Positions 55,392 to 57,830 of a DNA stretch of 64,000 bases are shown piece after piece. Source of the DNA: a bacterium (lineage in GTDB: Bacteria > Bacteroidota > Ignavibacteria > UBA10030). Each line of letters opens with the position of its first letter. The first letter of the stretch is position 1. Both the position numbers and the translations under genes were made by a program. Under the pieces are notes generated by a model, which saw only the letters and a program-made list of their open reading frames with translations, searched no databases and had not been told where the DNA came from. The DNA lies in contig JAZDJN010000091.1 of assembly GCA_043803945.1 (NCBI GenBank), positions 13,671 to 77,670 on the forward strand, in the 5' to 3' direction.

Positions 55392-55520
55392 TGTGGGCAC
55401 TACTGGGGTCCCCGCCCGACCGCATTTGAGTCTGATTATCGGTCGGGCGGGTCCACCAGAGGCGGATGAGCTTTCCGCCAAAAAGACGACGGACAAACTG
55501 GCTCAGAACCAGTGACCTTA
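55392..55520 (-). repeat. Partial direct copies of the tRNA-Val 3' part (T-arm copy 55497-55520; T-stem/acceptor copy 55392-55409) separated by unrelated hairpins
   Basis: Minus strand TAAGGTCACTGGTTC..CCAGT matches the tRNA variable/T-arm. Minus strand ACCCCAGTAGTGCCCACA matches tRNA ACCCCAGTAGCGCCCACA at 17 of 18 positions. A 12-bp perfect hairpin, CCCGCCCGACCG/CGGTCGGGCGGG, lies between them. Confidence 0.6.
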
Positions 55521-55582: not shown

Positions 55583-55586
55583 TATG

Positions 55587-55661
55587 TGGGCGCTACTGGG
55601 GTCGAACCAGTGACCTTACGCGTGTGAGGCGTACGCTCTGAACCAACTGAGCTAAGCGCCC
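55587..55661 (-). tRNA. tRNA-Val (anticodon CAC)
   Basis: Minus strand: GGGCGCTTAGCTCAGTTGGTTCAGAGCGTACGCCTCACACGCGTAAGGTCACTGGTTCGACCCCAGTAGCGCCCA. Anticodon stem TACGC/GCGTA with loop CTCACAC. Confidence 0.93.
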
Positions 55662-55965: not shown

Positions 55966-56295
55966 CTAGGAAATAATAGTCACGATTATTTCCACGACCT
56001 CGCGATATTTTCCCGGTATAATCGTTCCAATCTTTTTCTCGATTATTCGACTTTCAGCAGTAAATAATTTGTTCGGACGGGCATAGGAAGGGTCTTGAGT
56101 CAGGGAGCCTATAGCAAAATCGATTCGTTTCAACTCCACCGAATAGATGTCGCTTCGCGATGCAGTTATCTGGCAGAGAATGACATCCTCACCAAGGGGG
56201 TCCGAAATGACCAAAGCAGGACGTCTCTTTACTGTAGAAAGGTCTGAAAATGGGAATGGCAGAGTTACACCATCCCCTTTTACAAATCTAACCAT
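55966..56295 (-). CDS. PemK/MazF-family type II toxin (mRNA interferase fold)
   Basis: 109-aa ORF: MVRFVKGDGVTLPFPFSDLSTVKRRPALVISDP..DVILCQITAS.. This matches the MazF/PemK pattern (GD.v...FPF.D....KRRPALV.S.......I..ITS). It overlaps the upstream small gene by 16 nt. Confidence 0.8.
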   Translation of the reverse strand: MVRFVKGDGVTLPFPFSDLSTVKRRPALVISDPLGEDVILCQITASRSDIYSVELKRIDFAIGSLTQDPSYARPNKLFTAESRIIEKKIGTIIPGKYREVVEIIVTIIS

Positions 56296-56516
56296 GCAGC
56301 ATCCTCTTCAGGAGAGTCCCAGTCTTTTGCAAGTGCCTTCTCTGATGCTAACATCGTATCCGGGAATGGCCTAATCAACTCATGGATGAAGAACGGCCTG
56401 GTCTTCAAGGGACTTCCTGTAGAGCTAGATTCGATGCCAAGAGCAAGTGAGATTATTACTTGCCCTGATGCTAGCCATGTGCTGGAATCCACAGAACATG
56501 TCTCGTCAGGATTCAT
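56280..56516 (-). CDS. Putative cognate antitoxin (weak AbrB/MazE-like core, acidic C-terminal tail)
   Basis: 78-aa ORF. The C-terminal tail LASEKALAKDWDSPEEDAAWLDL is typical of small antitoxins. The segment SGQVIISLALGIES..GSPL.....I.L.RP is only loosely AbrB-like. Its ATG overlaps the upstream stop (ATGA). Confidence 0.5.
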   Translation of the reverse strand: MNPDETCSVDSSTWLASGQVIISLALGIESSSTGSPLKTRPFFIHELIRPFPDTMLASEKALAKDWDSPEEDAAWLDL

Positions 56517-57334
56517 CGTGTGTTCCTTGGATTGAATAGTTTCGCCACGTCTTTCTCTTTGATGGGTTGGAAGCCACCCGTCTTCGTTATTGCCGCAATA
56601 TCTATATTGCCTCCGACACCACGCAAGCCAACATAGAAGGATTGCATTTCCATGGTTGTCCGAACGAGCAACGCCGAAAGATTTATACAGTCTTGAAGTG
56701 GCAAGAATTGATACGGGATTTGTACCTGCAATTGTGACAACGCTTTCGAAAGCAATGTAGTTTGCTCTGCAGTAAGGCCTAAGGTTTTCTGGACAAATGG
56801 TACGAGTTGAGGGTCATAACCGTGTATTAACCTCCCAACGAACTCCTGCTGGCCTCCCCACACTGGGCCGAAATCCGACGTGTGCCACTCCTTTGGAACT
56901 GGTCGGGAAGGAATGTCTATCTCATAAACGCGTCCATAGGCTTCTCCCTCATCATAACCGCCTAGCATGAACACCATATCTGGCTGACCAGCCCACTGTT
57001 CAGGATTTGGCATCTTTTGGCCTATCCACATCTGCATGAAGAAATCACCGAGCTTTTCCGCTACCTCTCCCACCTTGAGTCTTTTCTTCTCGATTGAAGC
57101 TTCGAACTCGGGGATATAGCTGTGGGCTGTCCTTGGATTCTGCTGACCAATGGCTCCCAAACCGTAAGTCACAATGCCGACATAATCCTGCCCGTTAACG
57201 CGCAGCAGTTTCGTAGTATTATCAAACGTTGCCGGTAAAACGGGACCTCCTGGAATCTGGGCCATGAGGGTGACCCTGCTATCTGCGGCGAGGACTATCC
57301 CCTCTGGGCCTTTGAAAACAATACCTAGGGACAT
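56513..57334 (-). CDS. Proteasome beta-subunit/HslV-like Ntn hydrolase, no propeptide, Ser at position 1
   Basis: 273-aa ORF beginning M-SLGIVFKGPEGIVLAADSRVT. It aligns in register with proteasome beta TTxxxxxxxxxVxxAxDxRxT, giving S1, D17, R19 and T21. K41-LLRV fits K33 after an 8-aa insertion. Further matches are LGGYDE (GG.D) and the C-terminal GVGGNIDIAAITKTGGF (GG.I.V..I.K.G). Confidence 0.7.
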   Translation of the reverse strand: MSLGIVFKGPEGIVLAADSRVTLMAQIPGGPVLPATFDNTTKLLRVNGQDYVGIVTYGLGAIGQQNPRTAHSYIPEFEASIEKKRLKVGEVAEKLGDFFMQMWIGQKMPNPEQWAGQPDMVFMLGGYDEGEAYGRVYEIDIPSRPVPKEWHTSDFGPVWGGQQEFVGRLIHGYDPQLVPFVQKTLGLTAEQTTLLSKALSQLQVQIPYQFLPLQDCINLSALLVRTTMEMQSFYVGLRGVGGNIDIAAITKTGGFQPIKEKDVAKLFNPRNTR

Positions 57335-57369
57335 TTTCGTTCCAATGATATGCTTGGGAATTGCTATGA

Positions 57370-57398
57370 AGTATAGAGAATATTTTCTATCAGATCAA
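57370..57398 (-). promoter_or_regulatory. Sigma-70-like promoter for the hydrolase-antitoxin-toxin operon
   Basis: On the minus strand, TTGATC-N17-TATACT, with the -10 element ending 35 nt upstream of the ATG at 57334. Confidence 0.4.
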
Positions 57399-57438
57399 GT
57401 GCTAATGACCCAGCAAGAACAGCTTCAAAATGAAATCT

Positions 57439-57830
57439 TTAGTTGGAAGACAGCGTTATTCTGTTCACAGTACTGTGCATTTGCTCAGGCTGAAGATGCG
57501 GGTAGATTTCCGTCACCTTGCTCAAAGGTTGTCCAAGTAGTTTCTGTACTCCGTCGAGAGAAGCTCCATCCTGCACCAACCATCGGCACGCCGAGAGTTG
57601 CTCTTCCTTCAGAGGTGTCCGCATGATGGACCTCCTTGGTACCATGGAGCCAGAGCGTACTACGTGGAAGATAATCGGTGCTTTGGGAGTGGTTACAACT
57701 ATGCAGTTTCAAGTGACAAAGTCAACGTCCGGAAAGTACGCTTCCTTACAGTGAACTCAGAAACGAAGTATTGCTCTCAATCTGGCAGACGTAATTGCCT
57801 CCGCGTTCCAAACGGACAAGCGCGGTATCC
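57439..57830 (-). pseudogene. Degraded tyrosine recombinase (phage-type integrase) remnant
   Basis: The C-terminal frame gives ..WLVQDGASLDGVQKLLGQPLSKVTEIYPHLQPEQMHSTVNRI. This matches the integrase box II pattern WLVQ.G.SL..VQKLLGH.S...TEIY.HL, with His replaced by Gln. Upstream pieces (..VVRSGSMVPRRSI..PLKEEQL..) lie in broken frames, and about 100 aa of the catalytic core are missing. Confidence 0.55.

Follow-up and report, generated by a model that had tools for sequence, protein, structure and literature searches.

A mobile three-gene cassette linking a predicted proteasome-fold hydrolase, a hybrid antitoxin and a MazF-family toxin in Ignavibacteria

The antitoxins of canonical MazEF and PemIK type II toxin–antitoxin systems are degraded by the host proteases Lon and Clp. 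In omega-epsilon-zeta and PaaR2-PaaA2-ParE2 the antitoxin is devoid of a DNA-binding domain and the third gene of the operon encodes a transcription factor. In toxin–antitoxin–chaperone (TAC) systems a SecB-like chaperone is joined to HigBA, MqsRA or HicAB (PMC5105189, PMC6377645). Among proteasome homologues, 22 new families were reported by Fuchs, Alva & Lupas (2021), with no genomic context suggesting a function (PMC8665760). Here, a cassette is described from a 64 000-nucleotide stretch of an Ignavibacteria (UBA10030) genome (assembly GCA_043803945.1, contig JAZDJN010000091.1; hereafter the window), in which the gene for a predicted proteasome-fold hydrolase is coupled to the genes for a hybrid adaptor/antitoxin and a toxin. 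The favoured reading, to which a probability of about 0.5 was assigned, is a mobile three-gene type II toxin–antitoxin module in which the hydrolase degrades or cleaves the adaptor as a third partner.

The cassette measures 1.45 kb and was delimited from the listing of open reading frames (ORFs) of the window; it consists of three overlapping genes on the minus strand, the strand that also bears the further features located below by window position, apart from the direct repeat. Gene 1 (56513-57334) encodes a hydrolase of 273 amino acids (aa) that has no propeptide and begins MSLGIVFKGPEGIVLAADSRVT. Gene 2 (56280-56516) encodes the hybrid adaptor/antitoxin of 78 aa, and its start codon and the stop codon of gene 1 share an ATGA at 56516-56513. 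Gene 3 (55966-56295) encodes a 109-aa toxin of the PemK/MazF family and overlaps gene 2 by 16 nt (56280-56295). The three coupled ORFs, the shared ATGA and the 16-nt overlap given in the initial annotation of this DNA were all reproduced.

Related loci were collected from two sources. From GTDB genomes 80 loci were fetched, of which the 78 with at least 700 nt downstream were counted; of 80 metagenome contigs fetched 58 were usable, giving 136 loci in combination. An ORF of 60-120 aa follows immediately after almost every hydrolase gene, often with a stop/start overlap, and most loci initially scored as having no small ORF have one on inspection. The third gene on the same strand was assigned with Pfam and family hidden Markov models (HMMs). 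In the GTDB loci it is PemK/MazF in 19 cases, Fic/Doc in seven, ParE/RelE in five, ParE_like in two and PIN in two, and in a further five it encodes an unknown protein of ∼200 aa with no library match. The slot in the metagenome loci holds MazF 25 times and ParE, Doc and ParE-like once each. A recognised toxin thus occupies the slot in 35/78 GTDB and 28/58 metagenome loci (63/136), five toxin families being represented. These fractions are lower bounds, because some of the loci scored as 'none' hold further ParE-like or unknown small genes. In the GTDB loci the third gene starts 155-700 nt past the stop codon of the hydrolase, the distance being 190-362 nt for 37 of 40, and matches to toxin models elsewhere in the ±5 kb flanks amounted to one in the GTDB loci and two across all 136. 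The linkage to toxin–antitoxin genes, for which a survey of gene neighbourhoods had been suggested, is therefore recurrent and broader than had been guessed.

Gene 3 matches Pfam PemK_toxin (PF02452) with E = 4.9e-6 and 27.2 bits against a cut-off of 23.1, which agrees with the MazF/PemK signature noticed earlier in the last gene. The likewise noticed acidic tail of gene 2 (..ASEKALAKDWDSPEEDAAWLDL) is present and is common to canonical antitoxins. By comparison with antitoxins the C-terminal segment, residues 53-78 (DTMLASEKALAKDWDSPEEDAAWLDL; 56283-56360), is predicted to be of the MazF-binding type. A database search with gene 2 returned ten full-length relatives, all of 78-81 aa, and three antitoxins (P0131, P0132 and P0134) that match only its last ∼25 residues. 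P0131 and P0132 consist of a DUF2281 N-domain followed by ..SE.ALAKDWDSPEEDAAW..L, and P0134 of a RelB/DinJ domain followed by LASEKALAKDWLLPNEDAAWKDL. P0134 and its PemK toxin, which is 48% identical to the window toxin, are encoded as a simple pair in which the genes again overlap by 16 nt and which lacks a hydrolase. The shared tail and this pair suggest that gene 2 ends in a MazF-neutralising tail of the standard kind. For the remainder of the protein the Pfam and NCBIfam searches found no domain; the N-terminal ∼50 residues match nothing known, and an N-terminal DNA-binding domain of the AbrB, ribbon–helix–helix or helix–turn–helix kind is absent according to both libraries. The N-terminal half is also unrelated to the DUF2281 and RelB domains of the antitoxins that share the tail.

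Gene 2 is a chimera in which a toxin-specific tail is joined to an N-terminal module linked to the hydrolase. The earlier description of it as a small antitoxin holds for its MazF-type tail but is incomplete, as the protein is a hybrid carrying the hydrolase-linked module as well. The module (residues 3-28, PDETCSVDSSTWLASGQVIISLALGI; 56433-56510) is conserved within the gene 2 clade, and modules of its type were encountered only beside the hydrolase in the loci examined. At least four classes of N-terminus were distinguished among the small proteins. The commonest, class A, has the motif x-T-N-x-x-x-[ST]-x-[DE]-W-L-x-x-x-x-G-x-x-I-x-A-Y starting ∼5-10 residues from the Met; class B begins TITIT..., class C has TEsTD..W..GW. 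and class D has FG..iP..S...LTA.Y....W..L...W.I.MY. Gene 2 shares position, size and tail with this family of small proteins, and its N-terminus, ETCSVDSSTWLASGQVIISLA, looks class-A-like by eye. An ungapped HMM built from 79 class-A N-terminal segments misses gene 2 (E = 1.3, rank 4 of 711 window ORFs), and alignment of the gene 2 clade to 24 class-A N-termini with hhalign gave P = 5.6e-4 and a probability of 30% over residues 3-24. Because the HMM fails on gene 2, its assignment to class A leans on the weaker profile–profile match and on position. An AlphaFold2 model of gene 2, of low confidence [predicted local distance difference test (pLDDT) 50], shows a β-hairpin (5-14/19-28) and a helix in the tail and is otherwise largely disordered.

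The two ends of the small proteins appear to follow different partners. On a neighbour-joining tree of the hydrolases the N-terminal classes form clades, inside which the toxin types vary, and hydrolase identity correlates with the small-protein N-terminus with a Mantel r of 0.57 versus 0.34 for the tail. The tails in turn go with particular toxins. T1 (W..PEED.AW..L), found together with N-terminal classes A, B and D, precedes MazF in 12/12 loci; T2 (W..LSDEAL..FE) precedes MazF in 20/24, and after the remaining four no toxin gene was found; the Y.DIW..LA tail is followed by Doc in 5/5, and the DFD tail by PIN. Judged from these alignments, the N-terminus tracks the hydrolase clade and the tail tracks the toxin. 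In a reverse test with a profile of the class-A N-terminus, all four small proteins looked up have a hydrolase gene ending 1-27 nt upstream; one of the four contigs is that of GTDB locus L053. In P0154 (356 aa) and P0174 (407 aa), which are single ORFs, the hydrolase runs directly into a class-A-like motif (..GESDMQDEIICSAGTQDWLAALRASHATIISA..). The hydrolase–adaptor–toxin architecture is widespread; the toxin and its matching tail are swappable, and the hydrolase and the N-module stay together.

Several individual loci deserve mention with regard to the small protein and the slot. Longer 'small' proteins with a folded cargo behind the class-A motif occur at L017:5847-6287, L164 and L034:2855-3337. 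One of them contains an antitoxin-type PHD_like domain (E = 4.7e-4, sub-threshold) and another a GntR-type winged helix (E = 4.4e-6, 26.7 bits, under the 27-bit cut-off). Class-A examples of two-gene forms are L004:6794-7021, L012:5848-6054, L042 (after 2271), L117, L143 and L144; in L171:21-4204 and L172, from one lineage, the two-gene module lies between an extracytoplasmic-function (ECF) sigma-factor gene and lon, which is probably coincidental. In L027:1136-1504 (minus strand), L152, L154, L155 and L156 a Fic/Doc-like ORF directly follows the small ORF but is convergent with it, on the opposite strand, unlike the toxins at other loci, which are co-directional. At one locus (L052:2347-3171) the small ORF is followed by a TIGR04255-family protein (E = 1.9e-13). 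The unknown ∼200-aa protein (L020:6048-6698, L057:6063-6716, L072:6118-6741, L018:6095-6679 and L011:6163-6684) has an invariant QGD near its N-terminus, a Cys in SQCCD/SHDC, an Asp and an Arg; it found no match in Pfam, NCBIfam, PADLOC or PDB sequences and is a candidate new toxin.

No match for the gene 1 hydrolase was obtained in Pfam, NCBIfam or PADLOC. The Pfam Proteasome model (PF00227) does not match it, and one homologue reaches only E = 0.0079, because the family is too divergent for this model, like the families of PMC8665760. Searches of PDB sequences with phmmer and hmmsearch gave only spurious nanobody matches and a sub-threshold match (E = 0.1) of the C-terminal motif to archaeal β-subunits. 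The fold was recognized at the level of structure. A monomeric AlphaFold2 model was built on 31 homologues (pLDDT 78, predicted template-modelling score 0.76) and compared with the PDB using Foldseek, which returned 20S proteasome α- and β-subunits with E = 1e-8 and probability 1.0. There were 527 PDB chains at E<=0.001, the best 50 of the 527 all being chains of proteasome complexes, and the target-normalized template-modelling score to 20S subunits was 0.55-0.71. Gene 1 is thus predicted to have the proteasome (αββα N-terminal nucleophile hydrolase) fold, and the structural check that had been proposed places the 273-aa protein inside it.

A profile of the gene 1 family was aligned with the Thermoplasma acidophilum β-subunit (sequence entered by hand) using hhalign, with E = 3.5e-5 over 187 columns. 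The alignment pairs Asp18 (codon 57281-57283) with Glu17, Arg20 with Arg19, Thr22 with Thr21, Lys42 (57209-57211) with Lys33 and Gly58 (57161-57163) with Gly47, and the C-terminal RGVGGxIDVAxITxxGF of the hydrolases with SASGGMIDVAVITRKDGY. Both the N-terminal register with 20S β-subunits and the C-terminal GG.IDIAAI.K.GG signature, which the initial annotation had read by eye, are thereby borne out. The predicted nucleophile Ser2 (codon 57329-57331) meets Thr1 only when the 2-residue gap that hhalign opens is left out of the alignment of the first ten residues. Position 2, directly after the initiator Met, is Ser in 245 of 251 distinct homologues and Thr in three; position 18 is Asp in 240 and Glu in nine; Lys42 and Gly58 are each invariant (251/251). 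Removal of the initiator Met is expected when Ser follows. The near-invariance of Ser2, Asp18, Lys42 and Gly58 argues for a working enzyme. A close kinship to HslV was rejected, the hhalign probability against Escherichia coli HslV (sequence also entered by hand) being 0.2%.

Residues ∼163-235 of gene 1 (56630-56848) form a helical insertion in the AlphaFold2 model, which falls in a gap opposite T. acidophilum β in the hhalign alignment. It comprises four helices between strand S8 and the last two strands, where 20S β has only H3/H4, and holds an invariant LPLQDC motif, in which Gln214 and Asp215 are found in 251/251 homologues.

The limits of the cassette were obtained by blastn of the window. 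Positions 55966-57420, i.e. the three genes plus 86 nt upstream, are the only DNA common to related Ignavibacteria contigs, the identity being 86% for L007 and L087 and 79% for L008 and confined to this segment. In the L007, L008 and L087 genomes the cassette lies between tRNA-Pro(CGG) and der, and in the window it is flanked by tRNA-Val and an integrase remnant. As a discrete mobile unit, the cassette occupies different tRNA-adjacent sites. No hydrolase was found on plasmids by tblastn.

In the favoured reading, the C-terminal ∼25 residues of the adaptor, a MazE-type tail, would bind and block MazF, and the N-terminal ∼30-50 residues would form a module belonging to the hydrolase in place of the usual DNA-binding domain. 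The hydrolase would dock on this module and degrade or cleave the adaptor, both docking and proteolysis being postulated, and the antitoxin would be short-lived through the cassette's own enzyme and not through host Lon or Clp. As long as expression of the operon continued, newly made adaptor would keep MazF bound. If expression stopped, presumably upon loss of the element or phage shut-off of the host, or if the hydrolase were switched on, the adaptor would disappear and MazF would cleave RNA, leading to growth arrest. Degradation is favoured because the enzyme is clearly under selection for catalysis, because the adaptor no longer has the domain by which an antitoxin normally folds and dimerizes, and because a protease that destabilizes its own antitoxin would work in any host, fitting the spread across phyla. 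The tripartite module suggested in the initial annotation gains support from the proteasome fold and from the recurrent toxin–antitoxin linkage.

A number of points weigh against this reading. Two-gene forms consisting of hydrolase and small protein, and devoid of a toxin, make up ∼19 of the 78 GTDB loci as counted by eye, and often have a basic tail (..FTKxEFExAxKKVxRKIKK). A pure antitoxin-degrader model does not explain them; they suggest that the hydrolase–tag pair has a function of its own, to which the toxins were added. A protease made together with its substrate needs a means of keeping the toxin blocked, and none is evident. The resemblance of the gene 2 N-module to the widespread class-A motif is weak, the gene 2 model is of low confidence, and the P0154 and P0174 fusions could be artefacts of assembly or frameshift. 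In the hydrolase itself, no equivalents of Ser129, Asp166 and Ser169 are conserved, as had been suspected from the sequence; hhalign places Trp159/Gly160 and Gly239-Val240 there, and the chemistry may consequently differ from that of 20S and HslV. H3/H4 insertions could prevent double-ring assembly in proteasome homologues (Fuchs et al., 2021; PMC8665760). The modelled insertion of gene 1 may likewise preclude a closed double ring, and the label 'self-compartmentalising' may be wrong for this hydrolase.

It is also put forward, tentatively, that the hydrolase and the N-module constitute a portable tag-and-protease pair, a minimal targeted-degradation system spreading horizontally. Such a pair would have passed through more than ten bacterial phyla and into methanogens, and any cargo fused behind the tag would become conditionally unstable. 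The cargoes would comprise the antitoxin tails for MazF, Doc, ParE/RelE and PIN, the unknown 200-aa effector, the basic peptides and a GntR-like domain, and in the toxin-linked forms the pair would serve as a built-in timer, or as a switch triggered by phage, to free the toxin independently of host Lon and Clp. The two-gene forms would suit a processing enzyme with its own substrate, a Connectase-like hydrolase that would recognize the N-terminal motif as a sequence-specific site, cut once or transfer the fragment, and thereby mature, activate or re-target the small protein instead of destroying it. The conserved motif of ∼25 residues stands at a fixed distance from the N-terminus, and a propeptide-less and probably non-ring proteasome homologue can be a motif-specific ligase according to PMC8665760 and PMC7980362. 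This is nevertheless rather unlikely: the motif falls into at least four dissimilar classes, removal of a short N-terminal piece would not obviously alter the C-terminal toxin-binding tail and no second ligation substrate is evident.

Co-variation of hydrolase and N-module, natural hydrolase–adaptor fusions, and an adaptor in which the customary folded N-terminal domain is missing and most of the chain is predicted to be disordered would also be expected of a SecB-like chaperone or scaffold, which would fold, stabilize or oligomerize the adaptor through the N-module without any proteolysis and supply what the lost DNA-binding/dimerization domain used to give. A precedent exists in TAC, where a third protein is required by an antitoxin extension (PMC5105189, PMC6377645). 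Near-invariant catalytic Ser, Asp, Lys and Gly residues in 251 homologues are unexpected for a pure binder, however, and this role is considered unlikely. It is improbable that the hydrolase is itself the toxin, harmful when unrestrained and inhibited by the N-module, with MazF, Doc, ParE and PIN as added second effectors. The two-gene core is universal, the small ORF being present in nearly all loci, and the toxin genes are optional, but a toxin gene in first place would be an unusual order for a type II system, the family, in ordinary chromosomal surroundings, shows high conservation from phylum to phylum and there is no other sign of toxicity. That a MazEF pair merely landed beside an unrelated housekeeping hydrolase is very improbable. 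Toxin–antitoxin genes are mobile and common, and nothing further speaks for it, whereas a single ORF joins the antitoxin tail to the hydrolase-linked module, 63 of 136 loci have a member of one of five toxin families in the slot while just two toxin-model matches fall elsewhere in the flanks, and the three genes move as one cassette. Incidental adjacency is contradicted by the recurrence in the slot, the limits of the cassette DNA and the matching of tail to toxin.

The hydrolase family is large. A word-indexed search gave 2,098 clusters at 90% identity and an exhaustive profile search gave 247, 1,160 and 2,304 representatives at E <= 1e-30, 1e-10 and 1e-3, respectively; no family member found carries a name. 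Related loci come from more than ten phyla, those in GTDB spanning Ignavibacteria, Chloroflexota, Acidobacteriota, Desulfobacterota, Actinomycetota, Armatimonadota, Zixibacteria, Verrucomicrobiota, Methanobacterium and others. The archaeal modules, from Methanobacterium metagenome-assembled genomes (L079 and L085), have a class-D small ORF and a ParE/RelE-like gene; the hydrolase reading frame of L079 is split and may be a pseudogene. Sixteen temperate phages of Pseudomonas aeruginosa carry a relative that is 26% identical to the hydrolase. In Pseudomonas phage vB_Pae_LESphi2 (L167; OQ594955.1, 40815-41837) and the other 15 its gene comes after those for the tail fibre, at the end of the genome; the protein is extended at its N-terminus, carries Thr at the nucleophile position (..PLTINIAIATYDSIVLGCDS..) and is annotated as 'proteasome subunit beta' in one record. 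No partner small ORF was seen downstream of the P. aeruginosa phage relative.

Upstream of gene 1, a promoter-like site TTGATC-N17-TATACT (57370-57398) matches the consensus at 9/12 positions. Of the earlier promoter claim the presence of the site stands, and the related cassettes L007 and L008, overall about 80-86% identical, have TTGACC-N17-TATACT, with both hexamers and the spacing kept; the consensus match alone, however, is no better than chance, with four such sites in the region against 3.0 ± 1.8 in shuffled sequences. The adjoining tRNA-Val(CAC), also named in the initial annotation, was located by ARAGORN at 55586-55661, 305 nt downstream of the MazF stop. Just upstream of the cassette, a 68-aa ORF (57442-57645) is a putative integrase remnant; it matches Pfam Phage_integrase with E = 0.0074, below the cut-off, and covers only profile positions 135-171 of 172 (∼37 positions at the end of the tyrosine-recombinase domain). 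When att-like direct repeats that might bound an island were sought, the sole find was a 24-nt partial copy of the tRNA beyond tRNA-Val. This repeat (83% identical; 55497-55520 and 55595-55618) copies part of tRNA-Val ∼98 nt beyond the tRNA 3' end, on the side away from the cassette, and may be an old attachment-site scar. The view of the surroundings as a decayed integrative region is based on the sub-threshold integrase remnant and on the different locations of the cassette. None of the three cassette proteins matched a model in a PADLOC-DB 2.0 scan, and the ORF listing contains no AAA+ gene within the cassette that could provide an HslU partner.

Full-text literature searches found no paper tying a proteasome homologue to toxin–antitoxin or defence operons, and no description of a three-part toxin–antitoxin design built round such a protein; the one link to emerge was a role that the housekeeping Pup-proteasome may have in Mycobacterium tuberculosis (PMC8165232). 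The recurrent toxin linkage would be the first functional clue to this uncharacterized family of proteasome homologues. How antitoxins are removed, and whether housekeeping proteases activate toxin–antitoxin systems, has long been disputed, and a module with its own candidate protease would, if the favoured reading is true, make this dispute directly testable. The swappable design of tag, tail and toxin points to a general means of making proteins conditionally unstable, and a short recognition module with a small dedicated enzyme could, on the same proviso, serve as a tool.

Among the families of Fuchs et al., the hydrolase is likened, by published description, to the PMI group ('proteasome homolog with multiple insertions'; PMC8665760): no propeptide, a Thr1/Ser1-Asp17-Lys33-Gly47 set, an H3/H4 insertion and a patchy bacterial spread with some Euryarchaeota and distant phage relatives. 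It differs from the families of that study in having a strict partner ORF and toxin genes. Archaeal Connectase (PMC7980362) is likewise a propeptide-less proteasome homologue and may act on a motif in its partner, but its substrate is MtrA rather than a neighbouring small ORF and it has no detectable close sequence kinship to the window hydrolase; it is without helices H1/H2 and has an S3/S4 insertion (PMC8665760).

With canonical MazEF and PemIK (reviewed in PMC4963847 and PMC8165232) the cassette shares the PemK/MazF toxin, the antitoxin gene directly upstream, the 16-nt overlap and the acidic W..PEED.AW..L tail, but differs by a hydrolase gene coupled upstream and by an antitoxin devoid of a DNA-binding domain. 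As in omega-epsilon-zeta and PaaR2-PaaA2-ParE2, a third operon gene would supply a missing function, although here it encodes an enzyme without a DNA-binding domain. Panacea (PanA; NetFlax, PMC10440598) also combines one conserved module on the neutralization side with many unrelated toxin families; there the promiscuous domain resides in the antitoxin, whereas here the constant part is the enzyme with a short N-module and the tail is toxin-specific. By analogy, TAC is the nearest concept to the cassette: a co-encoded third protein acts on the antitoxin through an appended segment, and the accessory is combined with several toxin families (PMC5105189, PMC6377645). The third component of the cassette is a predicted proteasome-fold hydrolase with an intact catalytic set and not a SecB chaperone; the extra segment, which in TAC is a C-terminal extension, is N-terminal and replaces the DNA-binding domain; and the effect, protective in TAC, would be expected to be destabilizing. 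The cassette is regarded as a tripartite type II toxin–antitoxin module with a new class of third component.

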